From the NCBI GenBank assembly GCA_032128875.1, contig JAVLKG010000003.1:664874-728873 (forward strand): DNA of 64,000 bases, in the 5' to 3' direction. A program made the position numbers and the translations under genes. Positions 3,822 through 20,061 of the stretch are shown here, one piece after another. Numbering within the stretch: position 1 is the first letter of the stretch; the number at the start of each line of letters is the position of its first letter. Source of the stretch: Candidatus Melainabacteria bacterium 17Bon1m (lineage in GTDB: Bacteria; Cyanobacteriota; Vampirovibrionia; Obscuribacterales; Obscuribacteraceae). The notes below the pieces were generated by a model. The model saw nothing but the letters and a program-made list of their open reading frames with translations, had not been told where the DNA came from and ran no database searches.

Positions 3822-4787
3822 TTATTGCACAACTGGGATGACTTCAGCTGAGTTTTCTCGCTCTGCGAGCAAGCTCAAGAGGTTCTTTTCAATGGTCATA
3901 GATATCTCGTCCAACGGCAGATGGCTGAGATTGTGGACGTTGAACGGGTTCTGCAGTTCTACCCCGAGTTGATCAAGTGAGAAAAGAGGGTAGGCGACGA
4001 GCATCGTCACTAAAGGGACGAGAAAAAAATTGTCCAGAGAGTGCAGAAGCGCGAATGGCAAGGTAAGTACAAACAATGCAATAAATCTGCGAATCTTTAT
4101 GGAGTACGCCTGAGCTAATGGCGTCTTCAATATTCGCTCGCAGGCGCCGATATGATCTATCAGCTGCGCACGTTCTCGATCGACTTGCATGTAGGCGAAG
4201 CTGTCAATGTCTCCTTTTTCTAGCGCTTCTTTCAGAAGCAATCCTAGATTCAAGGAGATTGTGCTCGGCGGATGGCGCGTATCCAAAATTTGTGAAGCCG
4301 TCTGCGGACCTAGAAGCGCATTTAACTCTTTGGAAGAATTTTGTCCCCGCAAGACTAGTCTCGCCGAATGCGGAAACGAAGCGGCTAAGCGCACAAATTT
4401 CTCGCGCCACGTTTGGTCTTGTGGTCCGTAAGCTAGCGCAGAAATCGTGATGTTGCGAGACTGGTTGACTATGCCGCCCCAAAGCTTTCTTGCTTCCCAC
4501 CAGCGGTCATATCCAGCATTTGTTCTTAATACCAACAGCAATCCCAGTGCGGTTCCAATGAACTCGTAAGGAGTCAATTCAAGTGAAAGTCGGACGCCTA
4601 GGTATTTTTGCGTCAGTGCCGCTACCGCACAGATGAGCGAAGCCACCACTCCGACAGTGAGCACGTTCGGCAACACGTGCGGAGTAATTGATCCTTGTAT
4701 GGCAAAGGCATCAAACCAAAATGATTCCCACTTGCTGCTAGATGACGCTGTTGAGGGAAAGTCTTGGTTTTGAGATTGCTGTGACAT
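3822..4787 (-). CDS. Bestrophin-family anion channel (YneE-like)
   Basis: LLVLRTNAGYDRWWEARKLWG, GACERILKTPL and ELQNPF motifs; ATG at 4787 with GGAGG, overlapping the end of the carbonic anhydrase gene by 50 nt. Confidence 0.92.
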   Translation of the reverse strand: MSQQSQNQDFPSTASSSSKWESFWFDAFAIQGSITPHVLPNVLTVGVVASLICAVAALTQKYLGVRLSLELTPYEFIGTALGLLLVLRTNAGYDRWWEARKLWGGIVNQSRNITISALAYGPQDQTWREKFVRLAASFPHSARLVLRGQNSSKELNALLGPQTASQILDTRHPPSTISLNLGLLLKEALEKGDIDSFAYMQVDRERAQLIDHIGACERILKTPLAQAYSIKIRRFIALFVLTLPFALLHSLDNFFLVPLVTMLVAYPLFSLDQLGVELQNPFNVHNLSHLPLDEISMTIEKNLLSLLAERENSAEVIPVVQ

Positions 4788-5415
4788 CAGAAGCCTCCAA
4801 TATTTCAGCAAACTGACCAGATTTGCTGTCATAACTAAAAACTTGTCCTGTCTCGATTTTGTATGTCCATCCGTGCAGGTTGATCTCGCCTCGAGACAAT
4901 TTCACAGCCACTGCTGGGTGCGTTTTCAAATTCTCTAATTGAACCAGAACGTTTTCCTGAATGGCGACATTGAGAAGCTCTTCAGCGTTCAAACCGGCGT
5001 CAATGTAATTTTCTTCGACAATGCGTCGAGTGGCTTCTGCGTGCGACAACCACGAAACTACACTCGGAAGTTTTTTGATTGATTCAAGATTGAGTAGCCC
5101 TTTTACCGCTCCGCACAGCGAATGTCCGCATACGATAATGTCCTTGACGCCCAGACCCGCAATAGCGAATTCAATAGTAGCGCCTTCCCCACCGTTTGCT
5201 GCACCAAAAGGCGGAATTATATTGCCGGCATTTCTGAGAATAAAAAGGTCACCAGGCTGTGTCTGAGTGATGAGATTGGGATTTATCCTTGAATCGGAAC
5301 ACGTAATGAATAGAGCGTCCGGACTCTGTCCTTGCGCCAATCTTTCGAAGAGCTCCTGATGACTCTCAAAAACTCTAGATTGAAAGTGATGCAGACCCGT
5401 GATGAGTTTTTGCAT
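4738..5415 (-). CDS. Beta-class carbonic anhydrase (CynT/Can-like)
   Basis: Zn ligands CSDSR and HSLC, plus GDLFILRNAGNIIP. Confidence 0.95.
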   Translation of the reverse strand: MQKLITGLHHFQSRVFESHQELFERLAQGQSPDALFITCSDSRINPNLITQTQPGDLFILRNAGNIIPPFGAANGGEGATIEFAIAGLGVKDIIVCGHSLCGAVKGLLNLESIKKLPSVVSWLSHAEATRRIVEENYIDAGLNAEELLNVAIQENVLVQLENLKTHPAVAVKLSRGEINLHGWTYKIETGQVFSYDSKSGQFAEILEASDVTAISKPRLSLNSVI

Positions 5416-5586
5416 GTAAAGCTCCTTTACTACCTCTAAACGCCTACCCTTTTAGGAAGCCAAATATTGCGAACCCTTTTTACCGCTGACTCAAACTCGT
5501 GAGGCTCTGCCTGAAACGGTCCTGCAAATTGAAGTCCGCCGAGAATCCAAACAACCCGAGATTTCGAAAACGCATTGTTGCGAAGC

Positions 5587-5614
5587 TCAAATATGCAAAA
5601 GTTTGCATGTTTGA
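5587..5614. promoter_or_regulatory. Candidate ArsR-type operator upstream of carbonic anhydrase-bestrophin
   Basis: TCAAATATGCAAA-AG-TTTGCATGTTTGA, a 13-2-13 inverted repeat with one mismatched pair; the core is shared with four other promoters in the window. Confidence 0.65.
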
Positions 5615-5662
5615 ATATAACATCTTTGCTGGCTGTTGCGCAAGTCTCCCCGCCCTGTAAGC

Positions 5663-7726
5663 TCAGTTAACTGATTTGTCCTTAAGGATGTACACTCCGC
5701 CTTCTTCAGCGGCAATGTATATGATTCCGTTTTTCGCCTCGATATCGGAAGCGGAAAGTGGTATCGCGCTGAGATCAACGGTGCCTACTAGTTTTGGATT
5801 TTTCGGGTTGCTGATGTCGACTGAGTTGACCTGCATAAATCCTTGAACGTAGGCTCGGTTGCCTTCTATTTTCAATCTATCGGCCTGTTTGATTTTGATC
5901 GAGCTTACACGCTTCAATCTACCTGATGTGGTTCTGTCAAGGATGCTAAGTTCTCTGTCGCCCCAGATGCTGCCTTCCAGAACATACAGGTGTCGTGTAT
6001 CAGTGTCGAGCGCAAATGCTTTTTGATCAATTTCTGTCTGTGCAATTTTTTTGAGGTGTTGGGGATCTTTGGTGTCGAAGACAAGGAGCAGCGTCTCTTT
6101 CGGTCCTGTATCCGTCACAACGTAGAGGAAGTCGTCATGAGCACTCAGAATATCCGCGCCTGTCTTGATCGGATGGAAGAAGCGCTGCGCGCCGGATTTT
6201 TTGAAGATATGTACACCGTCTTCTGCAGCAGTGAAAACATAGTTTTTATTGCAAGCTAATTCACGATTTGACTTATCTACCTTTTGCGACCATTTCTCTT
6301 TGAAGGTGCCATCTGGCTGCTTCTCCAGGAGGGTAGTCACTGTAATGCGTGAGCCTTTGGAAGGAAACCGCTCATCAGCAACGACAATGTCGGAGTCAGA
6401 TTGGCACATTGCGCGCACCCCTTTGAAGTTCAACGTTTGAACAGCGGGTGACGTCTTATCTTCTGGTTTTGAATGGAAAGACTGAACTTCAGATGGATTG
6501 GATGTCGCATATAGTGTTTCGTCCATAAGCGCCAGCATTTGCGCATCGCCGCCAAGATGGTGGCGTGACACCAAAAGTGGTGTAAATGGATCGCTTATGT
6601 CTACGATTGCGAGGTCACCGGCATTCGTCGTTGCATACAGCTTTGTGCCTTCTACATCAAGGTCCACAATGCCCGTAATAACTGTGCTTGTGGATAATGT
6701 CTTTGGTTTTTTTCTATCGTGAATGTCAATAATCATCAAACCTGAAGACGTGCCGATGAATGCAAATCCATTGCGAATCGTGGCGCCTGTCCCATACCAA
6801 TATGCTGGAACATCAAGGCTTGATGCCAGTTGCGGCTTTTTTCCCTCGATACTAAGAATTGAAATTCCAGCATCCGGTGAATCTCCAGCTATTACGATCG
6901 TATTGCCTTCAACAGCGGCGGCTCCACGTCTAAGCCCACGTCCACCGGCTTTCCATTCGCCAAGTTTTACTGGGCTGCGTGGGTTTTTGATATCAAACAA
7001 TCGCAATCCTTGATCTTCATCGATCACGCACAAGCGGTTAGCATCGATGCAAACATTCAATGCATCCAGGGTTTCCGAACTCTTTTCAGGCGTGTCCTTG
7101 AAACTAACAGTCGATGGAGAGGTCGGGTTCTTCACATCAATGATTTCCAGCCCGTTCATTCCAGAGGCGATGTATGCGCACTCTGCACCGATAGCGACAT
7201 TCTTTGGCGCAGCCATGTGTCCGTAGGCGGCAACTTCGCGCGGTGAGTCCGGCTTGCTTACGTCGATTATTCGCAATCCGCCCCGCCCATTGCAGACGTA
7301 TGCGAAATTGCGTTCTACTTTGATATTGCTGATTTGACCTAAGAGAAGGAGTGAGCCCACAGTTTCCACATGCTGCGGGTCTTGGATGTTTACTACCAGC
7401 ATTGTTTCACCGGCGCCAATGTACGCGTATTTGCCTTCAACCGCGATTGCCGACAGTTTTCCGCCTTTCTGGGCGACCACGTCGATGTTCTTACTGGGCG
7501 GCAGGCGAGGGATGTCGAAGCGCTTCTGGCTAAAAATGTCGTAGCCGGTTATTAATTGTGTAAATGCAGCAAGGCGCCACAAACCGGCACTCTGCACGTA
7601 TGCAGCGACCACGATGAACGCTGAAGCTGTCACCCACATCAATAGAAGGGGCGATATCCTTACGCGTCTTCCAGGCACCTTGGGCGCCGGTTGTGATACT
7701 TGCTCTTCCACAGAAGTGTCCTGCAA
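5663..7726 (-). CDS. LVIVD-repeat beta-propeller protein with N-terminal membrane anchor
   Basis: Many repeats of the type YAYI...GLRIIDVSKPDSP / GLEIIDVKNPTSP; N-terminal hydrophobic helix. Confidence 0.85.
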   Translation of the reverse strand: MQDTSVEEQVSQPAPKVPGRRVRISPLLLMWVTASAFIVVAAYVQSAGLWRLAAFTQLITGYDIFSQKRFDIPRLPPSKNIDVVAQKGGKLSAIAVEGKYAYIGAGETMLVVNIQDPQHVETVGSLLLLGQISNIKVERNFAYVCNGRGGLRIIDVSKPDSPREVAAYGHMAAPKNVAIGAECAYIASGMNGLEIIDVKNPTSPSTVSFKDTPEKSSETLDALNVCIDANRLCVIDEDQGLRLFDIKNPRSPVKLGEWKAGGRGLRRGAAAVEGNTIVIAGDSPDAGISILSIEGKKPQLASSLDVPAYWYGTGATIRNGFAFIGTSSGLMIIDIHDRKKPKTLSTSTVITGIVDLDVEGTKLYATTNAGDLAIVDISDPFTPLLVSRHHLGGDAQMLALMDETLYATSNPSEVQSFHSKPEDKTSPAVQTLNFKGVRAMCQSDSDIVVADERFPSKGSRITVTTLLEKQPDGTFKEKWSQKVDKSNRELACNKNYVFTAAEDGVHIFKKSGAQRFFHPIKTGADILSAHDDFLYVVTDTGPKETLLLVFDTKDPQHLKKIAQTEIDQKAFALDTDTRHLYVLEGSIWGDRELSILDRTTSGRLKRVSSIKIKQADRLKIEGNRAYVQGFMQVNSVDISNPKNPKLVGTVDLSAIPLSASDIEAKNGIIYIAAEEGGVYILKDKSVN

Positions 7727-7804
7727 TACATCACCGATTCAGCAGTAAGTTCTACTGAATAGATGTGATTTTTAGGCCACAGTTCCGTTTATCCGTTTAT
7801 CGGG

Positions 7805-8971
7805 TTAAAGGATTGTTTTTAAATGCTTGACCAGCAAATGGTTCTCGGCTGGGCGGCCGGTTGTTACACGGAAGCAAGTCGGCAGTCCGAAAGCAGCCAG
7901 CGGGCGGATTGCGATGCCGCGCTTCAGCAGTTCTTCGTGAATGCGATTGACCTTTTCCTGGCAATTCATCTCAACGAGGATGAAATTGCCATGCGAGGGC
8001 ACCCGCTGCAGTCCAAGCTTGTCAAAAGCATCTTGCAAGAAAGCCATCGCATGACGATTGTTTGCGAGTGTTTCTTCCAGGAAGTCTTCATCTTGTAGAG
8101 CTGCCAAACCAGCGGCTTGTGCCAGTGAATTGGGCTCGAAAGGAAGTCTGATGCGGTTTACGAAGTCGATCAAATATTCGTGACCGAGTCCGTAGCCAAG
8201 TCTCAAACCTGCCATAGCGTAGGCTTTTGCGAATGTTCTCAGAGTGAGTACATTGTCCATGCGATAGCTCATCGAATCCGGATAATCCGGGTTGTCGCAA
8301 GCAAACTCGTAATAGGCTTCATCCATGATGACGAGCACATGCTCTGGAATCTTCTTGATGAAAGTGTCGAATTCCTGACGCGTAAAGATTGTGCCTGTGG
8401 GGTTATTGGGGTTGCACAGGTAAATGATCTTGGTGCGGTCGTTGACAGCATCAGCAATCGCGTCCAGGTCGAAGTGATAGTTTTTGAGTGGAACGGTGCG
8501 GAGCTTGACTCCCTGGGCTTTTACAAGCACCAGAAGTCCGATGAAAGTACCCTCGGATGTCAGCACTTCGTCATCGCCGTGCAGGAAAGCACGCACAATG
8601 TTAGCCATGATACTTTCGGAGCCGCTGCCAACCGCGAGGTTTTCGATGTTGACGCCCAGCTTGTGTCCAAGCGCTTCTCTGAGCTTGAAACTGCCTGATT
8701 CGGGATAACGGCAGATGTCGGGTAATGCAGCGGTTATGGCTTTCAATGCCGATTCCGGCGGTCCAAGTGGATTTTCATTGGAAGCCAGGTTGATAAACTT
8801 CTCAATCCCGAGCTCTTTCTTCAGCTGCTCGGGCGGTCTGCCGGGCTTGTACGAAATCAACTGTTCGATGTGTGTTGGCACGAGTTTTCTCGGTGCCAGC
8901 CTTCCACCTTGTTGCACCACTAGTCTCAGTGGGTCGGTCTTCGCTGCCAGTTGTTGAATGTATGTTGCCAT
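7805..8971 (-). CDS. hisC: Histidinol-phosphate aminotransferase
   Basis: LASNENPLGP, LCNPNNPTG, DEAYYEF and RTFAKAYAMAGLRLGY (PLP lysine). Confidence 0.92.
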   Translation of the reverse strand: MATYIQQLAAKTDPLRLVVQQGGRLAPRKLVPTHIEQLISYKPGRPPEQLKKELGIEKFINLASNENPLGPPESALKAITAALPDICRYPESGSFKLREALGHKLGVNIENLAVGSGSESIMANIVRAFLHGDDEVLTSEGTFIGLLVLVKAQGVKLRTVPLKNYHFDLDAIADAVNDRTKIIYLCNPNNPTGTIFTRQEFDTFIKKIPEHVLVIMDEAYYEFACDNPDYPDSMSYRMDNVLTLRTFAKAYAMAGLRLGYGLGHEYLIDFVNRIRLPFEPNSLAQAAGLAALQDEDFLEETLANNRHAMAFLQDAFDKLGLQRVPSHGNFILVEMNCQEKVNRIHEELLKRGIAIRPLAAFGLPTCFRVTTGRPAENHLLVKHLKTIL

Positions 8972-9217
8972 GGCTTCCGTTTAGTAATCAGTTGGTAATT
9001 TCCCGCGCAAAACCAGTCGGGCGGCGTGCCCGAAACCTCTCAATGTCACTGCGTTTGGCGCGGTCGGCATTAAGAAACTTTGACGCTAAAGTAACATCTC
9101 TTTTTCCCATGTACAAGTTAATGCAGGGTGAATTCCGTATTTATCAGATATATCTAACCTTAAGACTTCCTTGTGTATCGGGCATATCTTTAGATAAATA
9201 GCGTAAAGGGGCAATCT

Positions 9218-9637
9218 ATGGACGTTTCGGGACTGAATACGCGCAGTAAGGGCCGGTTGCCAGGTTTAATCGGCATAGAAATTGTTGAGAGCGCTAATGA
9301 AAAACTGATTAGTAAGCTTGATATCCGAGATGAGCTTTTAGCTCCTAATGGTTATCTACATGCGGCATCAGTGATCGCCCTTGCGGATACAACTTGTGGA
9401 TACGGCTGTGTACTGAATTTTAAGCCTGATGTGGCGTCATTCACGACAGTCGAGCTTAAGGCCAACTTCATAGGCACAGCCCGAAAAGGCACGATTTTTT
9501 GCCATGCTGAGAGAATTCATAGCGGCAAAACGACGGAAGTTTGGGATGCCAGGGTGAGCGACGCCGAAAGCGGCAAGTTGATCGCCCTGTTTCGTTGCAC
9601 CCAAATGCTTCTCTATAGAAAGGAAGCGCAATCCTAA
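9218..9637 (+). CDS. PaaI-family hotdog-fold thioesterase
   Basis: APNGYLHAASVIALADT and FTTVELKANF motifs. Confidence 0.9.
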   Translation: MDVSGLNTRSKGRLPGLIGIEIVESANEKLISKLDIRDELLAPNGYLHAASVIALADTTCGYGCVLNFKPDVASFTTVELKANFIGTARKGTIFCHAERIHSGKTTEVWDARVSDAESGKLIALFRCTQMLLYRKEAQS

Positions 9638-9639
9638 AT

Positions 9640-9692
9640 GTAGGGGAGTCGCATGCGACTCCCTGGCAGGGCGGCGCATGCGCCGCCCCTAC
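9640..9692. repeat. Inverted pair of GTAG REP-like palindromes
   Basis: GTAGGGGAGTCGCATGCGACTCCCT on + (9640-9664) and GTAGGGGCGGCGCATGCGCCGCCCT on - (9668-9692). Confidence 0.8.
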
Positions 9693-9787
9693 TTATTATG
9701 CAAACCCTACAAATTAGAGATATATGACCCTGTAAAGGGCGCCAGAGTGTTCTTTATATAGCTGTGTGATAAGATCTTGCATATTAC

Positions 9788-9861
9788 GCGGGTGTAGTTC
9801 AATGGTAGAACGGCAGCCTTCCAAGCTGCACACGCGGGTTCGATTCCCGCTACCCGCTCCA
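9788..9861 (+). tRNA. tRNA-Gly (anticodon TCC)
   Basis: Cloverleaf GCGGGTG...TACCCGC-T-CCA; anticodon arm GCAGC-CT-TCC-AA-GCTGC; T-loop GGTTCGATTCC; encoded CCA. Confidence 0.97.
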
Positions 9862-9951
9862 TTTTTTTCTGCATACCGCAACATCGGCTAAGAGTCTTCG
9901 CCGGTTTTTTCTAGTACAGATATATTCGTGCTGACATTTGAGGAGCGCGCC

Positions 9952-10944
9952 GTGGTTGATAACAAAATCTCTTTGAATGATGTTTTCGTTGCTCGCAAGA
10001 AAATTGCCGGCAAAGCAATTAACACGCCGTTTCGCAAATCGGTCTGGTTGTCTGAACTGACCGGTGCCGAAGTTTATTTGAAACTTGAGAATCTTCAGGT
10101 AACAGGATCATTCAAATATAGAGGTGCGTTGAGCGCTCTTACACGTAGCAAAGAGAACGCTCTTAGCAAGGTGTTCACAGCTTCGGCTGGCAACCATGGA
10201 CTAGCAGTGGCGGAAGCCGCAGTAGAACTCGGTCGCGATGTGACAATTTGCATTCCTGTAAATGCATCGGCTATTAAACGTCAGCGATTGAAAGATTACA
10301 GCGTCGCTGTAATTGAACACGGCGACGATTGCGAAGTGACTGAGAGTTACGCGCAACGCATGGCGAAAGAGAAGAAAGCTTTTTACATCTCGCCCTACAA
10401 CAATAGAGAAGTTATTGCAGGGCAAGGAACAGTTGCGCTGGAAATGTTCGAGCAAGTTCCGGAGTTGAACAAAATTGTTTGCTCTGTTGGTGGCGGCGGA
10501 CTTATAAGCGGCATCGGTGTCGTTGCGCAAGCCGTCAAACCGAAAACAGAAGTTTTAGGCGTTGTCGCAGCGAATTCTGCAGCGATGACTTCTTCCATAA
10601 ATCAAGGAAGAATCGTAAAGGTTATGCAAGAGCCGACCATTGCTGATGGTATCGCCGGTAATATCGAGCCTGATTCAATTACTTTTCCGATGTGCCAAGA
10701 GCTTGTTTCCGATTGGGCTGTTGTTGAAGATCAAGACATCAAAACAGCGATCTTCGAATTTCTAGATAACGAAGGCATGCTCATTGAAGGCGCTTCCGCA
10801 GCCGCAATTGCCGCGGTGTTGCGCAAGCAAGTTCAAATCAAACCGAAAGAAACGGTTGGCATTGTTGTTTGCGGCGGCAACATCTCGAAGAACGAGTGGC
10901 GCGAGATTGTTGTCGAACATCTGGTCTCCCAGACTCGCAAGTAA
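9952..10944 (+). CDS. PLP-dependent threonine/serine dehydratase family enzyme (no ACT domain)
   Basis: KLENLQVTGSFKYRG, ASAGNHG and VGGGGLISG motifs; GTG at 9952 follows GAGGAG. Confidence 0.88.
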   Translation: MVDNKISLNDVFVARKKIAGKAINTPFRKSVWLSELTGAEVYLKLENLQVTGSFKYRGALSALTRSKENALSKVFTASAGNHGLAVAEAAVELGRDVTICIPVNASAIKRQRLKDYSVAVIEHGDDCEVTESYAQRMAKEKKAFYISPYNNREVIAGQGTVALEMFEQVPELNKIVCSVGGGGLISGIGVVAQAVKPKTEVLGVVAANSAAMTSSINQGRIVKVMQEPTIADGIAGNIEPDSITFPMCQELVSDWAVVEDQDIKTAIFEFLDNEGMLIEGASAAAIAAVLRKQVQIKPKETVGIVVCGGNISKNEWREIVVEHLVSQTRK

Positions 10945-10951
10945 TTCGAAT

Positions 10952-11521
10952 TTACTCGTACAGACCTGAAAACAATCTCAATGCATTTAGATTGTCGTAC
11001 TTTTGCACACTCATTTTTGCTGGTTCGTCTTCTTTGTGATCAATAAGGACTGTTCCATCTTTTAGATCTATCAGTCCTTTCAGTACGGGCGTATAAAAAT
11101 CCGTTTTGGACCGCCCTTCAGGTTTTTTCGAAACTTCAGTTTGCCCGAACTTTACTTCTTCGCCAGGGCCTTTAAAGAACTTGGTTTTATGAATGTTCTT
11201 TTCCTTGGCAAATTCAGTTGTAAAAGCGTCCTCGAATTTTCCATCGTTATCTTTATCAATTTCGACAACCGCGAGCTTGTTGTCTCCAATGATTGTAACC
11301 CTGGCTAAGCCATCGGCCTGTCCGTCCTGGTCTCTGTGTATTTCAAGCTGCATTCGCCGCTGCTGGATGGAATTCAACGTTTCGTCTGATTTGACTTTGA
11401 ATTCCGGTATCTTGTACGCGTCATCAACTGCATTGTTCAAGTAAGTCTCCGACGCTACCAGTGGTCCCATTATTTGATCGGGAATTTTGTCGACATATGG
11501 TTGGTCAGGCACTTTGTTCAC
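10952..11521 (-). CDS. Hypothetical acidic protein with DxDxDG-like motifs
   Basis: 189-aa ORF filling the intergenic space; contains DKDNDGKFE and DQDGQAD. Confidence 0.6.
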   Translation of the reverse strand: MNKVPDQPYVDKIPDQIMGPLVASETYLNNAVDDAYKIPEFKVKSDETLNSIQQRRMQLEIHRDQDGQADGLARVTIIGDNKLAVVEIDKDNDGKFEDAFTTEFAKEKNIHKTKFFKGPGEEVKFGQTEVSKKPEGRSKTDFYTPVLKGLIDLKDGTVLIDHKEDEPAKMSVQKYDNLNALRLFSGLYE

Positions 11522-11708
11522 CCTTCTTAACTGATGGTTTTACTCTAAGACGGTGCCATGACATTGCGTTGACAGAATGAAGGCGACCACCCTCATTGCG
11601 AAGCTAAGATCTTTCGTCACAACCTCTCCGGAAGCGCTTGGGCCGAGGGAACGATTCGTGTATCGAGTTAAGGTTGTCGTGGCATTCTTGAAGCTTTCAA
11701 GTGTTCAA

Positions 11709-11728
11709 ATATTCAAAGTATTGCACAT
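11709..11728. promoter_or_regulatory. Candidate ArsR-type operator upstream of the ABC/HlyD/TolC operon
   Basis: ATATTCAAAGTATTGCACAT; with its TTGCA flank, 21 of 25 nt match the reverse complement of the site at 17354-17378. Confidence 0.65.
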
Positions 11729-11775
11729 TTGCACAGATTGTGTTAGATTCGAAATGTCTTCTGGAGTGGTATTCG

Positions 11776-13575
11776 ATGTTTTCCAACGAGAGCGTCCGTG
11801 CTCCCTATGAGCACGTCAGTCCTATGACACGCCTCTGGGGTTTGCTTGTTGCGGACAAGCACGATCTCGTTGTGCTGCTCGTCTATACCTTAATGACGGG
11901 CATTGTCTCGCTAGCCGTTCCGCTTGCTGCCCAAGCGCTCGTAAATACAATTGCCGCCGGCATATTTCTTCAACCGCTCATCGTCCTTTCGTTGCTTGTT
12001 TTGGCAGGCCTTCTTTTCGGAAGTATTTTGCGACTCTTGAAATTTTGCCTTGTGGAAGAATTACAGCAAAGAATATTCGCGCGCATCACGTTGCGGCTGG
12101 GCGAGCGCATTCCGGTCATAAAAGCTTCAGCTCTCAACACCGAGTACATGCCTGAGCTGATCAATCGTTTCTTTGATGTGATGAATGTTCAGAAATCCTG
12201 GGGAAAACTTCTCCTTGAAGGTCCGTCAGCCTTACTGCAAGTGTTGATTGGCCTTGTTCTCATGGCGTTTTACAGCCCGTTTCTCCTCGCATTTGATGTC
12301 CTGATTATTCTTTTCGTTTTCTTCGCTGTAAGCGTATTGGGAATCGGAGGACTTAAATCGAGCATAAAGGAATCTGCGTTCAAGTATCGGGTGGCCGAAT
12401 GGCTAGAGGACATGGGGCGTTGCCAGACCAGTCTCAAGACCAACGGGATAAGTCATTTTCTCTTCAGGCGCTCTGATGCGCTGGTGCTCAACTATCTGAG
12501 AGCACGTCGTGAACATTTCAGTGTTTTGTTTCGGCAAGCGTTGGGGACTTATTTTTTTCAGGCAGTCGCGAGCGCGGGAATTCTTGCAATTGGTGGTTGG
12601 CTGGTGATCAACAAGCAGCTTACATTGGGGCAATTGGTGGCTGCGGAACTAGTTGTTTTAAACGTGCTATCGGCTCTGGAGAAATTGATCCGCAACTGCG
12701 ATACATTCTATGATTTGCTCACCGGTCTCGACAAGGTCGGTCACCTGACGGACTTGCCTAGCGAACGCGAAGGCGGAGTCACTCTGCCCGAGAGCTCGGG
12801 CGGGCTGAGTGTAGAGTGCATGAAATTGCATTTCTCTTACGGAACAAGAGAAATACTCAGCGATCTGGAGTTGGAATTGCAAGCGGGTGAGCGAGCCAGT
12901 CTCGTTGGTGCCAGCGGGGCCGGCAAGACAACTCTTGCATCCATCATCTGTGGATTGCAGGAAGCGTTGCACGGAACCGTGGAGGTGGGCGGTTTCGACG
13001 TGCGAGATCTAGACCTGAAAGACCTGCGCAAACGGGTCGGTTTGGTTGGGGACATCAATGAAATTTTCGAAGGCACCATTGAAGAGAATGTTGGGCTGGG
13101 CAGACCGACGGTTTCCCATCAGGATATTCGCTGGGCTCTTGATGCTGCACAATTTTCTGATGATCTCGTGCATCTTCCGGATGGTATCAATACGATGCTG
13201 GTTAGTGGCGGGCGAAATTTGTCGCGTGGACAGGTTCAAAGGCTCTTGATCGCAAGAGCCGTAGCCGAACGTCCTCGGCTCTTGATACTGGATGAAGCAT
13301 TCACCGGAATTGATGAAAAAACAAAATTGAAGATCATTGATTCATTGCTCGCTCGCGAAAATGACTGGACGGTGCTCGATATTTCTCACGATGCTGAAGT
13401 CGTTATGCGCTCGGATAAAGTCTATGTGCTCGGTGGCGGCAAAATTAGTGAATGTGGGACGCCGGCAGATCTCGCCTGGCGTAACGAGAGCGAATTTTCA
13501 ACTCTCTTTCCTGACCTGGCAACGCAAATTCGCATGGTCGAGAGAAGAAAAAAAGAGCGTGTGGGGAAACTGTAA
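11776..13575 (+). CDS. Type I secretion-like ABC transporter (TMD+NBD, no C39 domain)
   Basis: Six-TM domain, Walker A GASGAGKT, signature LSRGQ, Walker B LLILDEA; ATG at 11776 after GGAG. Confidence 0.9.
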   Translation: MFSNESVRAPYEHVSPMTRLWGLLVADKHDLVVLLVYTLMTGIVSLAVPLAAQALVNTIAAGIFLQPLIVLSLLVLAGLLFGSILRLLKFCLVEELQQRIFARITLRLGERIPVIKASALNTEYMPELINRFFDVMNVQKSWGKLLLEGPSALLQVLIGLVLMAFYSPFLLAFDVLIILFVFFAVSVLGIGGLKSSIKESAFKYRVAEWLEDMGRCQTSLKTNGISHFLFRRSDALVLNYLRARREHFSVLFRQALGTYFFQAVASAGILAIGGWLVINKQLTLGQLVAAELVVLNVLSALEKLIRNCDTFYDLLTGLDKVGHLTDLPSEREGGVTLPESSGGLSVECMKLHFSYGTREILSDLELELQAGERASLVGASGAGKTTLASIICGLQEALHGTVEVGGFDVRDLDLKDLRKRVGLVGDINEIFEGTIEENVGLGRPTVSHQDIRWALDAAQFSDDLVHLPDGINTMLVSGGRNLSRGQVQRLLIARAVAERPRLLILDEAFTGIDEKTKLKIIDSLLARENDWTVLDISHDAEVVMRSDKVYVLGGGKISECGTPADLAWRNESEFSTLFPDLATQIRMVERRKKERVGKL

Positions 13576-14985
13576 ATGGATTCAACTCAAATTCGCCAGA
13601 TAGAAGATCTTTCGTACAAGGCTGATTACGAATCCCTCAAAGCAGTGACATCGCGCAGAGGCTACGCAGTCATTGCCGTCATGCTTTCCATAACCCTTGT
13701 TTCGTTTGTTCTAATGCTCGTCTATGTTCCCTGGCAACAAAGCGTTGCGGGCACTGGAAAGATCATTATTCTGTCTCCAATGCACAGACCTCACAACATA
13801 GAGGCTCCTATACCTGCGCGCTTGAAGCATTGGTATGTAAGGGATGGGCAATTCGTAAAACAGGGTGAATTAATTGCTGAACTTTCTGATCTCGATCCGA
13901 AATTTCTTGATCCGGAGCAAGGTAAACGTATCACTTTTCAAAAGCACGCTCTTCTTGCACGTAGAGGTGCCGCTTCAAACAGGTTCCATGCGTTGGAAAA
14001 ACAATTGGATAGTCTTAAGCGATCACAGAATGCCGCTGTGCCCTCGGCTCGAGAACGCTCTCATCAAGCCAAGGATCGCATCTGGGCAGCAGAGCAGGGT
14101 GTTGAGGCCGCCAAACAAAATCAGTTAACAGCCAGGCTCAATCTTGACCGCATGCGAGAGCTGCATGAGAAAGGTTTGCGATCAAAACGCGACTTGGAGT
14201 TAGCAGAACTTGAACATACTCGCGGTATCACTGACTTAGAGCGGGCACATGCAGCTCTTGATGTGGCGCGGCGCGATCAGACAGTGGCAGTACTGGAACA
14301 GGAAAAAATTGTCGCGGATACTGATGCGACAATGAGCAGCATTGCTGCTGCAATGGCCGCGGCGCAAGAGACAATAGAGTCGACTTCAAGTGAGATTTAC
14401 AAGCTCGATATTGAGTTACAAAATGTCAGTGCAAGGCACGAACAGCGCAAAGTTTTCGCGCCGTCTTCCGGGAAAATAGTACGGCTACTAACAGTAGGAG
14501 CCGGTGAGACTGTTGATGCAGGAATGGTGCTAGCAGTCATCGCTCCAGAAACACAAGATCTTGCTGCCGAACTGACTATTAGTGACAACGACGCGCCGCT
14601 CGTTGCTGTCGGCAGACCGGTGCGATTGCAATTCGCCGGCTGGCCTGCGTTGCAATTCTCCGGCTGGCCCTCAATTGCGGTTGGCACATTCGGTGGACGC
14701 ATAGCTGTTATCGATGCTGTTGATGACGGACGGAACAGTTATCGCGTTATTGTCAAACCCGATGCAGATGCGATCGCCAACGGAAAAGACGAGCCTTGGC
14801 CCGATGCCAGATTTCTCAGGCCTGGTGCTGAGGTAAGCGGCTGGATCATGCTGGACACCGTCAGTCTTGGCTTTGAGTTGTGGAGGCAATTCAACGCGTT
14901 TCCTCCAACTGTCAAACCGGAGGAACTTGGATTGCACAAAACATCTCAAGGCGATAAGGCAGAAATCAAACGCAAATCGAAGTGA
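13576..14985 (+). CDS. HlyD-family membrane fusion protein
   Basis: N-terminal TM, lipoyl halves (VRDGQFVKQGE; VGAGETV), long coiled coil, VRLQFAGWPALQFSGWP. Confidence 0.9.
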   Translation: MDSTQIRQIEDLSYKADYESLKAVTSRRGYAVIAVMLSITLVSFVLMLVYVPWQQSVAGTGKIIILSPMHRPHNIEAPIPARLKHWYVRDGQFVKQGELIAELSDLDPKFLDPEQGKRITFQKHALLARRGAASNRFHALEKQLDSLKRSQNAAVPSARERSHQAKDRIWAAEQGVEAAKQNQLTARLNLDRMRELHEKGLRSKRDLELAELEHTRGITDLERAHAALDVARRDQTVAVLEQEKIVADTDATMSSIAAAMAAAQETIESTSSEIYKLDIELQNVSARHEQRKVFAPSSGKIVRLLTVGAGETVDAGMVLAVIAPETQDLAAELTISDNDAPLVAVGRPVRLQFAGWPALQFSGWPSIAVGTFGGRIAVIDAVDDGRNSYRVIVKPDADAIANGKDEPWPDARFLRPGAEVSGWIMLDTVSLGFELWRQFNAFPPTVKPEELGLHKTSQGDKAEIKRKSK

Positions 14986-14998
14986 GGATTACGAAGTA

Positions 14999-16480
14999 AT
15001 GCGTTTGAGTCAGAAATTATTGAACTCGATAATATTTCCAATCTCATTTTGTGCGGTGCTAGCCAACGCTGCATTGGCGCAAGACAGTCAGCTCCAAAAT
15101 GTTCCTGTGCCGAGCAATTTAAGAGGCATAGGGCTTCAAGCGCCGGAAGGTAAAAGTTTCACGCTCGAACATTTCCTGAAGCTGGTCGAGAAAAATTATC
15201 CCAAGCTGTTGGCTGCCGATGCCGAGCGGAGAATCTTCAGCGCCAAGCGTCTGGAAAAGGCGGGTGCGTTTGATCCTGTTTTAAGCAGTATCAATGAGTA
15301 TTTGAGAGTTCAAGACACATTCATACCTGGCAAAGCAAAAGACGCTATTCACAATGAATCAAGAATAGATCTTCTGACGCGGTCAGGAATAAAAATATTT
15401 ACCGGTATGCGCCTGAACCCAAATGACACGAAAACACCTTTTGTGCCGACCGGTAAAAGCGGCGAGTATTTTGCCGGTGTTTCTGTGCCGTTGCTCAGAG
15501 GATTGGGCATCAACGAGAAAATCGCTGCTGAGTCGCAAGCCAAATTAGGTGAGCCCCTGGCATTGCAATTATTCGGCGCTACGCGACTGGAAGTTCTTCT
15601 CAAAGCGGCTGCAGTTTATTGGGATTGGGCAGGAGCAAAAGCTCGCGTTGATATTGCGCGAGATCTCCTTTCGATTGCTGAAGCCAGGGTCGGTCAGATC
15701 AAAGAACGTGTAAACAGCGGTGATCTTCCTGCTCTCGATATTGCCGAATCTGAGCAAGAAATTCACAGACGGCAGGCTGCTCTCGTCAAGCAAGAGCGTG
15801 AATTTCAAAAAGCATCACTGCTACTTTCTGTTTATCTATGGGATGAAAATGGCGTTCCTCGTAATGTACCTGGTGTTGAGGACGTACCTGCTCTAAAGCC
15901 CGAGCCTCGTAAATTAGCGGACTCCGAATGGTTGGACGGACGCAAAATGGCGTTGGCACTTCGCCCAGAATTAAAGAAAATTGCTTTGGAGCGAGATCAA
16001 GTAAAAGTCGATTTGCGTCTTGCGGAAAACATGATCCTTCCGTCGATGGATGCATACGTCTTGCAAGGCGCAGACACGGGTCCTCAGGGGATCGGTCCGA
16101 TTGTCAGGGCGGGGGTGGCTGTTTCGGCTCCATTGAGGCAGCGAACCGCAAGAGGCCAGGCACAAGCTGCCAGACTGAAACTTCAAAAGCTAAATCTGGA
16201 TGAGAAAGCCGAGAAATTGCGTATTCAAGCCGAGGTGGATGACACAGTTTCAGCCATAAATACTTCATATGAGCGGTGGGCTGCCACTATGGTTGAAGTG
16301 CAGAAAGCAAAGCAGGTGGAAAAGGGTGAGCGTTTGCGCTTTGGTGCGGGTGACAGCACTTTGTTTCTCGTCAATCAAAGAGAAAGAGCTTCTGCCGAAG
16401 CGCAGCTGCGACTGGCTGAGGTACATGTTGAATATTTACAGTCCATGGCTGCTTTTCGTGCTGTCACTTGCAAACTATGA
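14999..16480 (+). CDS. TolC-family outer membrane efflux protein
   Basis: Signal peptide, helical repeats, C-terminal ERLRFGAGDSTLFLVNQRE; follows HlyD. Confidence 0.9.
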   Translation: MRLSQKLLNSIIFPISFCAVLANAALAQDSQLQNVPVPSNLRGIGLQAPEGKSFTLEHFLKLVEKNYPKLLAADAERRIFSAKRLEKAGAFDPVLSSINEYLRVQDTFIPGKAKDAIHNESRIDLLTRSGIKIFTGMRLNPNDTKTPFVPTGKSGEYFAGVSVPLLRGLGINEKIAAESQAKLGEPLALQLFGATRLEVLLKAAAVYWDWAGAKARVDIARDLLSIAEARVGQIKERVNSGDLPALDIAESEQEIHRRQAALVKQEREFQKASLLLSVYLWDENGVPRNVPGVEDVPALKPEPRKLADSEWLDGRKMALALRPELKKIALERDQVKVDLRLAENMILPSMDAYVLQGADTGPQGIGPIVRAGVAVSAPLRQRTARGQAQAARLKLQKLNLDEKAEKLRIQAEVDDTVSAINTSYERWAATMVEVQKAKQVEKGERLRFGAGDSTLFLVNQRERASAEAQLRLAEVHVEYLQSMAAFRAVTCKL

Positions 16481-16513
16481 AAGAACTTTCTTGACTAATT
16501 GTTGTATATATAG

Positions 16514-16533
16514 ATATGCTAATGTTTGCAAAA
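16514..16533. promoter_or_regulatory. Candidate autoregulatory operator of the first ArsR
   Basis: ATATGCTAATGTTTGCAAAA, ending 19 nt before the ATG. Confidence 0.55.
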
Positions 16534-16552
16534 GTCAGAATGAGGACGCGTC

Positions 16553-16939
16553 ATGCCCTACAGAGCAGTTGTGAGCGCGGAGTTGGCAAAGCTCTTCAAT
16601 GTGCTTTCGCACCCGGTTCGCATTCGAATAATTGAAGAGTTGAAGAAAGAAGATCTCGCTGTGGGCACACTGAAAGATATTCTTGGTATTACGCACTCTG
16701 CTGTTTCTCAACAACTTGCTGTGTTGAGAAGCCATCACCTGGTCGTCGAGATGCGTCAGGGGCGGAATGTTTTCTATCATCTGAGAAAGCCGGAACTTGC
16801 TCAGTGGATTATGCAAGGAGTTGGTTTTATCTCACCAGACACAACGGAAGTAGAAGATTTGATGTCTGCTATTCAGAACGTCAAGACTGTTTGGGGTGAT
16901 GAAACTCCTCAGCCTAAGCGAAAAAAACGCGGCGCCTGA
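16553..16939 (+). CDS. ArsR/SmtB-family regulator (no cysteines)
   Basis: LSHPVRIRII, SAVSQQLAVLR and RQGRNVFY winged-helix motifs. Confidence 0.92.
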   Translation: MPYRAVVSAELAKLFNVLSHPVRIRIIEELKKEDLAVGTLKDILGITHSAVSQQLAVLRSHHLVVEMRQGRNVFYHLRKPELAQWIMQGVGFISPDTTEVEDLMSAIQNVKTVWGDETPQPKRKKRGA

Positions 16940-17329
16940 TTATTTCTCTCTAGCCTCTTTTGAGCGAACCTTTTCTTTTTCATCCGACCAATGATTAATA
17001 GCCCTCTGGGCCGCTGACTTGAGTAAATTGGATTCTGAATCGTCAGGGACGATAAGTGGAATTCCTTCAATCAGCCATGTTGCAATTTCAGGTGATGCCA
17101 GCCGGTACAAAATGTTGCGGCCGTCTCGTCTTTCTTTTATTAGTCGCTGCGACTTAAGCAGCGCGAGATGTTGCGAGACTGCGGATTGTCTAATGCCGAG
17201 AATGTCCTGAAGCGAATTAACACATAGCTCGCCTGCCCTCAGCTCGACAATGATGCTGATTCGCACAGGATGGGACAGAGTTGAATACATCGCTGCAAGC
17301 TGTTGCGCAATCAAAGCTCTATGAGGCAT
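16940..17329 (-). CDS. ArsR/SmtB-family regulator, paralog of the adjacent gene
   Basis: LSHPVRISII, SAVSQHLALLK and RDGRNILY; stop codon directly abuts that of its paralog. Confidence 0.92.
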   Translation of the reverse strand: MPHRALIAQQLAAMYSTLSHPVRISIIVELRAGELCVNSLQDILGIRQSAVSQHLALLKSQRLIKERRDGRNILYRLASPEIATWLIEGIPLIVPDDSESNLLKSAAQRAINHWSDEKEKVRSKEAREK

Positions 17330-17358
17330 AAAGGCTTCGTTCCTTGTGATATTTGCAA

Positions 17359-17378
17359 ATGTGCAAGTATATGAATAT
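17359..17378. promoter_or_regulatory. Candidate operator upstream of the second ArsR
   Basis: Minus strand reads ATATTCATATACTTGCACAT followed by TTGCA. Confidence 0.6.
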
Positions 17379-17527
17379 CAAGACACATAAATACTAGCAA
17401 ATATTCGCAGTTTGGGCAAGGCTGGTGTTCGAGCCATTTTGCGCTATTCGATTTATCTAGAAATGTCTTCAGGGCCTTTTGACAAAAGTCTTCGATCCGC
17501 TATACTTGCAATTGTTGAGAGTTTTAG

Positions 17528-17547
17528 ATATTCAAACATTTGCAAAT
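17528..17547. promoter_or_regulatory. Candidate operator upstream of the murF-like/dabB/dabA operon
   Basis: ATATTCAAACATTTGCAAAT, ending 14 nt before the ATG at 17562. Confidence 0.6.
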
Positions 17548-17561
17548 GACTGAGGTGAACC

Positions 17562-18533
17562 ATGAGTGCAACTTTTACAGCTGAAGAAATTCTCTGCGCA
17601 ACCGGAGGACATTTGAAATCAGGATTCGTCGACGAAAGACGAGGTCGGCTGACGTGGGACATAGAAGAGGTAAGGCCCGGTGATTGGTTTATATGCATAC
17701 CCTCTCAATTTGATGATCCACACGACAGGCTCGGTTTGGCATTCGATAGGGGAGCTCTGGGTGTAATAGTCAATCGGCGCAGTCGTTTTTCGTCGGCTTC
17801 GAAGGATGCGACTATCATTTCGGTTTCTGATACAAAGACAAGCATCCTTGAGCTTGCACGCTACTGGCGTTATCGTGTTCAGCCTAAAGTCGTCGGCGTG
17901 TCTGGCAGTTGCGGTCGGCGAGTGACTGTTGCTCTTCTCAGCCGGCTGCTCGAGGGCACTCAAAAAATTCATGTCGCTTTTATGAACAATCTCGGTTGGT
18001 TCTCTTGCCTGGAGGATGTTCTTTCCATGCCGGAAGATACTGAGGTCTTGATCTTCGAAGCCGGAGGAGTAGAAAGAGGCGATGTCAGCCGCATAGGTGG
18101 TTGTCTAGATCCTGATCTGGCTGTCTTGACGCGAGTTGCTCATCCGCTTCCATCCGCAGAGCGTGATGCATTTATTGCATCGCTCTACTGCGAAATACTA
18201 GAGACTCTGCCTAATGGCTCTTCTGAGAAGCTTAGTGCTGTGATTTACGATGATAATTCTGCGGTCCAAAAGCGAGTAGAAGAACTGTTCGATGATCCTA
18301 ACGTGAAGAGGCGTTCGCTGAGCGGAGCTGGAATGTCTGGAAGATTGTCGGAAGCTTCGCTTAAAGAGTTGAGTGCAACCATGGAATCGATTTTTGCACA
18401 ACATGTTACGCAGGCAGAAATCTGGTGCGCAATAGAAGCGGCATCTGCTCTGGGAGCTACAGAGTTTGAGATAGAAGAGCTTTTCGAGTTGCAAAATGAT
18501 TCATGCGACGCTCAATTGAGCCTACTGAAATGA
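17562..18533 (+). CDS. Degenerate, truncated MurF-like (Mur ligase fold) protein
   Basis: MurF-like N-terminus (FTAEEILCATGG, VRPGDWF) and KVVGVSGSCGRR P-loop variant; only 323 aa with no C-terminal ligase domain. Confidence 0.75.
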   Translation: MSATFTAEEILCATGGHLKSGFVDERRGRLTWDIEEVRPGDWFICIPSQFDDPHDRLGLAFDRGALGVIVNRRSRFSSASKDATIISVSDTKTSILELARYWRYRVQPKVVGVSGSCGRRVTVALLSRLLEGTQKIHVAFMNNLGWFSCLEDVLSMPEDTEVLIFEAGGVERGDVSRIGGCLDPDLAVLTRVAHPLPSAERDAFIASLYCEILETLPNGSSEKLSAVIYDDNSAVQKRVEELFDDPNVKRRSLSGAGMSGRLSEASLKELSATMESIFAQHVTQAEIWCAIEAASALGATEFEIEELFELQNDSCDAQLSLLK

Positions 18534-18564: not shown

Positions 18565-20061
18565 ATGATGAACACGCAGTTTCTTGTTGCAAATGAGCTG
18601 GCGGCACTTCTCGCCGCGCCCCTAGCTCTTCTTCTAAGTTGTTTGGCGACCATTACGTGGAAAACGCGAATACTCATATTTGGTCAGATTGCTGCTTTCA
18701 GCTTTGCATTTTTTGGTCTTTCATGGGGTTTGATTAATCCATCTCTTGTGCCATCTGCGGCAATGCTCAAGCATTTGCCGTTCAATTTGGATGTTGCCTC
18801 GTGTTGCTTGCTTACTGCTATCACATTCATTGCAGCGGTTGTGCTCTCGTTTAGTGATCGATACTTGCTTGGTGACGCTCATCGGCTGAGTTTTTTGCGA
18901 CTGCTTGCATTTATGTCGTCGTGCGCAGCGCTGTTGAGTGTAAGTGACAGTATATGCTTAGCATTTGTTTGTTGGAATGCACTTTCTTTGGGACTCTGGG
19001 CAATTATGCGATTGCACTCTGAGTCTAAAGAGTTCTCAAATGTTGTTCTCGGCTACCACTTGCTTAGCGACCTCGGGTTGCTCGTTGCACTAGTACTGAT
19101 TGTCGGAGGCACTGAAAGCACACAATTTAGCAATTTAACCAGCGCGTCCTTTTCTTTGACGCAGACAATCAATCAGTCGACAAGCTTGGTGGCTTGCTTG
19201 CTTCTGGTCCTCTCTTTCGGCATAAAGTCAGCGCTTTTCCCCTTTCACCGATGGTTGCTGGCTACATTGAATGCCCCCACTCCGCTGTCTGGTTTTTTGC
19301 ATGCCGGCGTGGTGAATGTTTCAGCGATCATGGCCTGGCGATTAATGCCGATACTTCATGAACAAACAGAAATTCTCCTCTTCTGGGGGTTATGGTCGGC
19401 TGTTTCGGCGATTGTGGGAACTCTCGGCATGTCTGCCCAGCCGGATGTAAAACGCAAACTGGTTTACTCAACTGCAGGTCAGATGGGTTTTATGTCTCTG
19501 CAATGTGCTGTGGGCGCTCCTGGAGCGGCCCTTTTCCATTTGATTGCTCATGGACTCTTCAAATGTCAGATGTTCCTTCAATCAGGAAGTGCGGTGGCAG
19601 AAGGATTGAACAGTAGGAAATTCGCCTATGGGCTGCAGGATGGTAGTGAAGGAAAAGGTCTGAAAAATCTGCTGATTGTCGTAACCGTGGCTCTGGCCTT
19701 TGTCTGTTTCTATACGACATGCATCGACTTCGATTGGACGTCGCTGTCAGCTGCAATAACAGCTGCGGCCATTCTGTGTGCGATTCCTGCTCTGGACCGA
19801 GTTGATATGAGGTCTCTTTGTTTATTTTTGCTGACCACATTACTGTTCGGAGTTGCGACCGGGTTTGGGCGTCGCTTCTTCGAAGGGCTTTTACCCGCAG
19901 AATACGCGATAAATGAATGGCTTCTACCTGGTTTTTTGCTCCTCGCTCTGGCGCTTGCATTTGCCCTGCACATCGCTCGAAGAAGCAGCATTTCCAGGGC
20001 CTTATACGTGCACAGCCTGAATGGATTTTATTTGGGCGAAGTGGAATTGAGCCGTAAGTAA
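18565..20061 (+). CDS. dabB: DabB/MpsA-like proton-conducting membrane subunit of an inorganic carbon pump (NuoL/ND5-like)
   Basis: KSALFPFHRWL, APTPLSGFLHAGVVN, STAGQMGFM and HLIAHGLFK; directly upstream of a DUF2309 gene. Confidence 0.88.
   Translation: MMNTQFLVANELAALLAAPLALLLSCLATITWKTRILIFGQIAAFSFAFFGLSWGLINPSLVPSAAMLKHLPFNLDVASCCLLTAITFIAAVVLSFSDRYLLGDAHRLSFLRLLAFMSSCAALLSVSDSICLAFVCWNALSLGLWAIMRLHSESKEFSNVVLGYHLLSDLGLLVALVLIVGGTESTQFSNLTSASFSLTQTINQSTSLVACLLLVLSFGIKSALFPFHRWLLATLNAPTPLSGFLHAGVVNVSAIMAWRLMPILHEQTEILLFWGLWSAVSAIVGTLGMSAQPDVKRKLVYSTAGQMGFMSLQCAVGAPGAALFHLIAHGLFKCQMFLQSGSAVAEGLNSRKFAYGLQDGSEGKGLKNLLIVVTVALAFVCFYTTCIDFDWTSLSAAITAAAILCAIPALDRVDMRSLCLFLLTTLLFGVATGFGRRFFEGLLPAEYAINEWLLPGFLLLALALAFALHIARRSSISRALYVHSLNGFYLGEVELSRK

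Follow-up and report, generated by a model that had tools for sequence, protein, structure and literature searches.

Results

Genes and boxes of the locus

The stretch analyzed here, which we call the window, is 64,000 nucleotides (nt) of the genome of Candidatus Melainabacteria bacterium 17Bon1m (order Obscuribacterales). It contains two genes for regulators of the ArsR family, genes for handling inorganic carbon (Ci), a type I-like exporter, and five copies of a palindrome, here called boxes 1 to 5. On the minus strand, a beta-carbonic anhydrase (CA) gene (4738-5415; Pro_CA, PF00484, E 4e-46), whose translation has intact zinc-ligand motifs CSDSR and HSLC, is followed by the second gene of its operon, which encodes a bestrophin-like anion channel (3822-4832; Bestrophin_2, PF25539, E 2e-73). 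Box 1 (5587-5614) lies upstream of this operon, with the remnant of a third arsR gene between them. Box 2 (11705-11732) precedes the plus-strand exporter operon (11809-16480), in which Pfam and NCBIfam recognize an ABC transporter gene ending at 13575, HlyD (13576-14985) and a TolC open reading frame (ORF; 14867-16480) labelled OEP.

ArsR1 (16553-16939, plus strand) has 128 amino acids (aa), no cysteine and, in its predicted model, an extra C-terminal helix. The convergent ArsR2 (16940-17329, minus strand) has 129 aa and one cysteine, and both proteins bear the HTH_5 label. The arsR1 promoter (16491-16520) and box 3 (16510-16537) lie upstream of the first gene, and box 4 (17355-17382) upstream of the second. 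A further plus-strand promoter (17479-17506), followed by box 5 (17524-17551), precedes a gene for a truncated MurF-like protein (17562-18533; 323 aa), dabB (18565-20061; Proton_antipo_M, PF00361), dabA (20087-22537; DabA, PF10070, E 8e-243), a DUF6671 gene (22509-23411) and a cysD paralogue with no cysN beside it (23506-24309; PAPS_reduct in Pfam, CysD in NCBIfam), which is likely the last gene of the dab operon. A first-pass annotation of this DNA had already listed five related 20-mers and the genes downstream of them; all five sites were confirmed in the sequence at their positions and strands, and the gene names by Pfam and NCBIfam, the MurF-like match being weak.

The RuBisCO large subunit (PF00016) was not found in the host genome (7.55 Mb, 93% complete), and the host is therefore read as a heterotroph. 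An Rfam scan of the window yielded only tRNA-Gly(TCC) (9788-9861), so an explanation by a riboswitch or noncoding RNA was dropped.

The palindrome is rare in the genome

The sites form a palindrome that spans about 28 bp, with ATAT(G/T)C as one arm and G(C/A)AT as the other. The 13-2-13 inverted repeat reported earlier at box 1 is present, with 12 of its 13 pairs matched. The loose consensus proposed at the same time, ATAT(G/T)C-N8-GCA(T/A/C)NN, is not specific by itself, as it has 113 matches genome-wide; in the 12-kb region it was expected 0.18 times and observed five times, a post hoc figure. A stricter pattern, also post hoc, has seven matches in the genome, five of them inside the window. 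When each site in turn was left out of a symmetric 20-mer position weight matrix (PWM), 4, 14, 6, 21 and 2 genome positions reached the score of the held-out site, counts that include the training sites and the held-out site itself.

A refined PWM was built from 114 distinct sites of relatives, which define TnnAnATAT(G/T)CAAA-nn-TTTG(C/A)ATATnTnnA. Under this PWM, the five window sites rank first in the 7.55-Mb genome (scores 31.1-24.4, box 1 being the highest), followed by an intragenic site at 20.1 and, as the best other intergenic site, one at 14.9, a ranking that is partly circular in that the 114 sites were picked with the window PWM. Had the motif been equally common in other DNA, the proposal of a shared operator would have suffered; it is instead rare genome-wide. 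The site at 11709 falls inside the longest ORF call (GTG at 11701), yet the ATG codons, at 11754 and 11809, are both downstream of it.

Three candidates for further membership were rejected. The site at C12:15020, which precedes an unannotated gene, scores 19.5 with the first PWM and 11.5 with the refined one. The site at a SulP-arsR4-usp operon on contig C1 scores 10.8, and that of an exporter paralogue on contig C2 scores 9.9.

Conservation of the boxes in relatives

We applied a PWM built from the five window sites only to 78 of 79 related loci, omitting L071 as near-identical and dropping genes with an upstream gap below 50 nt or a flank below 200 nt. A score of at least 14 was reached at 128 of 179 regulon-type operon heads: 61/81 arsR1-like, 14/17 arsR2-like, 27/35 ABC, 15/18 murF-like, 8/24 dabB and 3/4 CA-like. 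Only one of 330 other genes reached this score, as did one of 123 AT-rich other genes; keeping genes that adjoin regulon genes brought the count to 14 of 386. Shuffled upstream regions gave a mean of 0.94 and a maximum of 4, and column-permuted matrices a mean of 1.26 and a maximum of 18 of the 179 heads. The motif is thus conserved in the promoters of relatives, where its absence would have spoken against the first-pass annotation. Its consensus varies slightly with target class.

In four intergenic regions aligned between the window and its relative G011, the boxes differ at 6 of 140 positions, versus 78 of 626 in the other intergenic sequence. Farther away, in 23 of 27 loci from outside the Obscuribacterales, the best site of the locus lies at most 200 nt upstream of arsR (scores 5 to 24), in a ranking where GC-rich backgrounds favor an AT-rich site. 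The palindrome is very probably the operator of this branch of ArsR proteins.

Position of the boxes relative to promoters

The arsR1 promoter reads TTGACT-N18-TATGCT, and box 3 covers its -10 element; TTGAC recurs with this spacing in most of the 22 upstream regions compared from arsR1 orthologues. At the dab promoter (TTGACA-N16-TATACT), box 5 comes after the promoter, in the leader beside the ribosome site. Judged by eye, relatives keep the dab -10 element in 15 of 15 cases and TTGAC in 14 of 15. For the exporter and CA operons, visual inspection places the box either across a weak -35 element or directly against an extended -10 element; box 2 overlaps such a -35 at 11721-11726, in a promoter whose extended -10 is at 11744-11749 and which the promoter scanner did not list. 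The scan of the window gave 14 promoters versus 18.8 in shuffles, which is no enrichment, and of the scanned promoters we rely only on the two conserved ones, those of arsR1 and dab. The boxes appear to occupy the positions of repressor sites, on or just after promoters.

A third arsR gene has been lost at box 1

The site at 5591 had been ascribed to the CA-bestrophin operon. It does lie upstream of that operon, but it was, judging from PWM scans and alignment, originally the operator of arsR3-CA-bestrophin, from which arsR3 has since been deleted. The gene order hisC...box-arsR3-CA-bestrophin is intact in L065, L066 and L133, and DNA alignment with these loci shows the deletion. Two parts survive in the remnant (5454-5575, minus strand), a start codon at 5575 and, at 5549-5454, the final ~32 codons, whereas the helix-turn-helix (HTH) is gone and the frame lost; the remnant matches the intact arsR of L066 with a tblastn E of 9e-16. 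The deleted arsR accounts for the 176 nt that separate site 5591 from the CA start. RNA-labelled runs are identical to the window at the deletion, and these runs may be the window's own source.

In G011 a further deletion at the same place has removed more of arsR3, and the box is retained: among its 28 positions a single one, the degenerate G/T, differs from the window, whereas the flanks differ at 18 of 178. Because box 1 was kept in G011 after the loss of arsR3, we infer that it is still read in trans, by ArsR1 or ArsR2.

The LVIVD beta-propeller gene identified by Pfam between hisC and box 1 (5663-7726, minus strand) is absent in L065 and L066, partial in L133 and split in G011.

A distinct branch of ArsR proteins

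ArsR1 and ArsR2 are 46% identical and exceed the thresholds of the hidden Markov models (HMMs) for the ArsR/SmtB family (PF01022, 30 and 42 bits vs 22; NF033788, 79 and 87 vs 55). With an E of 1e-30 or better, a profile search for their branch retrieved 43 clusters. We aligned 58 picked full-length members. All of them share Arg23, Ser52, Gln53 and Trp85; Trp114 is present in 50, and Pro2 and Arg4 are each present in 45. An N-terminal M-P-x-R and an extra C-terminal helix ending in Trp114 are the hallmark of the branch. Its paralogues fall into separate subclades, and a quick-mode tree sets it apart from the other ArsRs of the genome with moderate support (SH-like approximate likelihood ratio test, SH-aLRT, 87).

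The available text of PMC11672702 defines metal sensors by the alpha5 motif DxHx10Hxx(H/E), sensors of reactive sulfur species (RSS) by an alpha2/alpha5 cysteine pair, and arsenic sensors as a further class. The alpha5 metal motif DxHx10Hxx[HE] and C[VA]C, the mark of the three-cysteine site of As(III) sensors, each occur in 0 of the 58 members. No cysteine is present in 32 of them, and no alignment column holds more than three. The cysteine pair is missing from ArsR1, which has no cysteine, and from ArsR2, which has one, and the two score 54 and 60 bits with the BigR model NF040642, below its cut-off of 155. By the definitions in the parts of PMC11672702 at hand, applied to sequence, the branch comprises neither metal, arsenic nor persulfide sensors.

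The predicted model has the winged-helix fold a1-a2-a3-a4-b1-b2-a5 (predicted local distance difference test, pLDDT, 81.5), with SmtB and CzrA as top Foldseek matches. The extra helix (97-115) is modelled with lower certainty and lies outside the part matched by solved structures. A homodimer model scored 0.77 versus 0.00 for the best control, with at least 85% of contacts shared between runs and a pLDDT of at least 80; 20 of 30 homodimers of solved structure and 1 of 23 monomers attain this mark, and the high score may stem from resemblance to ArsR dimers already solved.

Named members of the branch include proteins of Erythrobacter sp. and Legionella. A search of the ESM Atlas returned only generic ArsR clusters, and searches of plasmids gave no match for P0013 and P0166 and only generic ArsRs for P0175. 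A fourth branch member of the host lies in a SulP-arsR4-usp operon (G000 C1:486955-489073, L062) with a weak box (10.8); similar operons occur in L053, L055, L059 and L061. In L155-L171, CA-SulP is followed by another arsR, which is convergent and has an altered wing; in the one such case checked (L172) no box was found upstream. Paired arsR paralogues are also present in the window, and a role as modulator is conceivable.

Genes that accompany the branch

The first-pass annotation proposed that the local ArsRs co-regulate DAB, the beta-CA, the channel and the exporter. In sequence terms this stands insofar as the boxes are rare, conserved and follow the ArsR branch across phyla. It has to be amended on three points: the CA box was once that of arsR3, the regulon takes in only one of five CA or CA-like genes, and the exporter is an equally constant partner. 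Among the 79 related loci, DAB, CA, SulP or bestrophin genes lie within 10 kb of arsR in 50, the exporter in 46, carbon genes together with the exporter in 23, and neither in 6. A hand count over 40 genomes of the order found ArsR with DabA in 17, ArsR only in 8, DabA only in 4 and neither in 11; in five of the eight ArsR-only genomes, arsR stands beside CA-bestrophin or SulP.

The link to CA extends beyond the order. In 17 of 20 metagenome loci fetched with an Erythrobacter-named homologue, a beta-CA gene directly follows arsR, in 14 of these 17 SulP comes next, and a second convergent arsR is often present. The order box-arsR-CA-SulP also recurs in five loci (scores 14-38) from two other families of the phylum. 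One of these families also has an operon of arsR, CA, isocitrate dehydrogenase and DUF6671 (L223:7499-13634 and L228:5495-8809), which in L223 goes on into ABC-HlyD; here a CO2-releasing enzyme is linked to CA.

Homologues of the exporter in three Bacteroidota plasmid records have no CA, DAB or arsR neighbor. Records titled Flavobacterium psychrophilum (L097) and Proteobacteria (L118) hold Obscuribacterales-type loci (ArsR identity 77% and 60%), and their titles may be mislabelled.

The dab operon and its partners

The adjacent PF00361 and PF10070 genes encode a DAB pair in which the DabA motifs CIDVR, H and CGAC match the C/D/H/C zinc site described in the available text of 10.1101/476713. 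That text presents DAB as an energy-coupled Ci pump and suggests that its role in heterotrophs is to provide bicarbonate for carboxylases. In three proteobacterial plasmids dabB-dabA-DUF6671 lies under a divergent LysR gene, with a best box score of 0.6 or less. DUF6671 is a recurrent partner of DAB, SbtA and CA genes, and in Arthrobacter it adjoins a sodium-dependent bicarbonate permease.

The DUF6671 model (pLDDT 92) bears a weak resemblance to the ITPase/YjjX/HAM1 fold (best E 7e-4, template modelling score about 0.3). The protein has a C-terminal region with invariant cysteines and about 5100 homologues, and we found no mention of it by name in the literature searched. In the plasmid loci L238, L241, L242 and L243, DUF6671 lies near pyrC, ilvD, an acyl-CoA carboxylase subunit gene, a Mur ligase family gene and cysD. 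Carbamylated lysines are a feature of PyrC, IlvD and Mur ligases, and such enzymes beside DUF6671 would fit a low-CO2 gene set.

MurF ligases are full-length three-domain proteins with a GKT P-loop. The MurF-like protein of the window falls outside this definition, with 77 bits versus a TIGR01143 cut-off of 289, GSCGRR at the P-loop position in the alignment and no GKT lysine, and is probably not an active ligase. This truncated pseudo-ligase is conserved, lying upstream of dabB in 26 of 79 loci; cysD occurs in 9 of the 79. A second truncated murF-like paralogue is found on the same contig (G000 C3:121763-122677). Divergent CA-like genes with incomplete zinc motifs lie within dab operons at L035:18656-19375, L047:4468-5082 and L037:9050-9757.

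Discussion

Proposed mechanism

The rarity, conservation and promoter position of the sites, their linkage to the ArsR branch and the deletion of arsR3 are most simply read as an ArsR-repressed regulon for Ci supply in a heterotroph, to which we assign a probability of about 0.65. For binding, repression and signal we infer the following scheme. Dimers of ArsR1 and/or ArsR2 would sit on or just behind the five promoters and would repress, besides their own genes, the DAB and exporter operons and, acting in trans, the CA-bestrophin operon. A shortage of cytoplasmic Ci would lift repression, and DAB and CA would then supply bicarbonate to the biosynthetic carboxylases of the heterotroph. The signal might be bicarbonate or CO2 acting as a co-repressor; alternatively, a metabolite accumulating during stalled carboxylation might serve as inducer.

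Several observations weigh against a regulon for Ci supply. The four other CA or CA-like genes of the host genome score 2.8 or less, as do, at 0.9 or less, six of the seven SulP genes scanned there (of eight SulP matches). Eight loci of Acidobacteriota, and those Armatimonadota loci that have reference-set neighbors, carry the exporter only; DabA is found in one of five genomes of these phyla, in a dab operon without a box. Eight loci of family f12 have no nearby carbon gene, and their boxes are weak in seven of the eight. ArsR searches drew a blank in four DabA-positive genomes of the order and in a further four of the class. We know of no role in carbon uptake for the exporter, the murF-like gene or cysD, and the beta-CA family also takes sulfur substrates, as in carbonyl sulfide (COS) hydrolysis. 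The SulP family, too, handles sulfur substrates according to the available text of PMC10880623. The relatives are kin and some genomes give several loci, such that the counts across loci are not independent trials. Four RNA-labelled runs from one sample consist of long flat DNA-like contigs identical to the window and are uninformative on transcription.

Alternative explanations

The main rival keeps the operator and changes the signal to pH, general anion stress or the exporter substrate, with CA, DAB, SulP and bestrophin as pH-homeostasis genes. It draws on the 46 of 79 loci with the exporter, on the Acidobacteriota and Armatimonadota loci where the exporter is the sole reference-set partner, and on L051, where a box precedes the gene region of a Na+/H+ antiporter. 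However, DAB is described in the available text of 10.1101/476713 as an energy-coupled Ci pump and not a pH buffer, DUF6671 follows DAB and SbtA elsewhere, and the Erythrobacter-like loci have CA and SulP without the exporter. We regard a pH- or exporter-centered signal as unlikely, if the most serious of the competitors.

A bolder form of the carbon hypothesis would make the branch a one-component sensor of CO2 or bicarbonate itself in heterotrophic bacteria. Removal of the N-terminal Met before Pro leaves Pro2 free, and Pro2, Arg4 and the extra C-terminal helix could form a carbamate or bicarbonate co-repressor site. DUF6671 and the exporter would then be unrecognized parts of a low-CO2 module that has come under an ArsR in some phyla and a LysR in others by exchange of its regulator. 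We offer this as a speculative extension and think it doubtful.

The boxes could also serve separate paralogues and circuits, with box 1 a dead relic of arsR3 and no single regulon. The deletion of arsR3, the slight shift of consensus with target class and the separate subclades of the paralogues are compatible with this, but box 1 tops the genome and in G011, also without arsR3, is far better kept than the sequence around it (1/28 versus 18/178 positions changed), and the paralogues have in common the SQ(H/Q)L stretch of their predicted recognition helix. Separate circuits are improbable. A sulfur regulon of the SqrR/BigR kind, with CA as COS hydrolase, SulP as sulfate carrier, sulfate activation by cysD and persulfide sensing, is about as improbable. 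The SqrR site ATTC-N8-GAAT, as given in the available text of PMC9774250, is an allowed variant of the PWM, the BigR HMM matches weakly, and cysD and SulP are among the targets. Nevertheless, this site matches exactly at none of the five window sites, the BigR cut-off is missed, cysD occurs in few loci, and no sqr or sulfurtransferase gene was seen among annotated neighbors; moreover, the cysteine pair that RSS sensors need, by the text of PMC11672702 at hand, is not there in the ArsRs of the window, and 32 of 58 branch members have no cysteine at all. Finally, reading of the palindrome by another regulator, or its origin as an AT-rich promoter by-product, is a very remote prospect: an AT-rich site does rank high by composition alone in GC-rich loci, but AT-matched, shuffled and column-permuted controls fail to reproduce the result and the locus-best site lies just upstream of arsR in 23 of the 27 non-Obscuribacterales loci.

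Significance

The Ci-supply regulon that we favor bears on a gap in the literature, where, in the text available, most regulators of CO2 limitation belong to autotrophs and are LysR proteins responding to RuBisCO-linked metabolites, and Ci sensing by heterotrophs is left open. The present analysis provides a named protein branch, an operator with its PWM, and target operons in several phyla, and it hints at what DUF6671 and an orphan type I exporter may do. If the proposal is true, the ArsR family gains a new input, and non-photosynthetic Cyanobacteriota regulate Ci supply otherwise than their oxygenic relatives do.

Comparison with known systems

We found no description of this regulator or box in the literature searched; subscription journals, supplements and tables of the RegPrecise type were outside that search. 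With ArsR/SmtB repressors such as SmtB, CzrA, NolR, HlyU and Rv0081, the branch shares the winged-helix fold and a palindrome, its probable operator, at its own promoter; a homodimer like theirs is predicted, perhaps through likeness to solved dimers. It differs in the lack of an alpha5 site or C[VA]C (58 of 58 members), in the extra helix, and in its targets, which are CA, DAB, SulP, bestrophin and the exporter. The operator core of SqrR, BigR and YgaV, ATTC-N8-GAAT in the PMC9774250 text at hand, is related to the palindrome; unlike those proteins, however, the branch has no cysteine pair, most of its sites read ATAT(G/T)C-N8-GCA, and its annotated neighbors include no sulfide-oxidation genes. 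The dab operon resembles known DAB/DAC pumps (10.1101/476713) and the proteobacterial LysR-dabB-dabA-DUF6671 cassettes in its dabB-dabA core and DUF6671 partner, whereas the window has an adjacent ArsR with its box and a murF-like gene in first place.

The closest functional parallel lies in the oxygenic cyanobacteria. NdhR (CcmR) is, in the available text of PMC13249358, an autoregulated repressor of Ci-uptake operons, and the same arrangement is predicted here from sequence. That text names five regulators of the CO2-concentrating mechanism (CCM) and mentions ArsR zero times. NdhR (CcmR), CmpR and RbcR are LysR proteins, and the NdhR box is ATAG-N8-CTAT, whereas the regulators adjacent in the window are ArsRs; the effectors 2-phosphoglycolate and ribulose 1,5-bisphosphate of the LysR group depend on RuBisCO, which was not found in the host. 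By analogy, the regulon of the window would work like the NdhR regulon of oxygenic cyanobacteria, but it is not a member of it.

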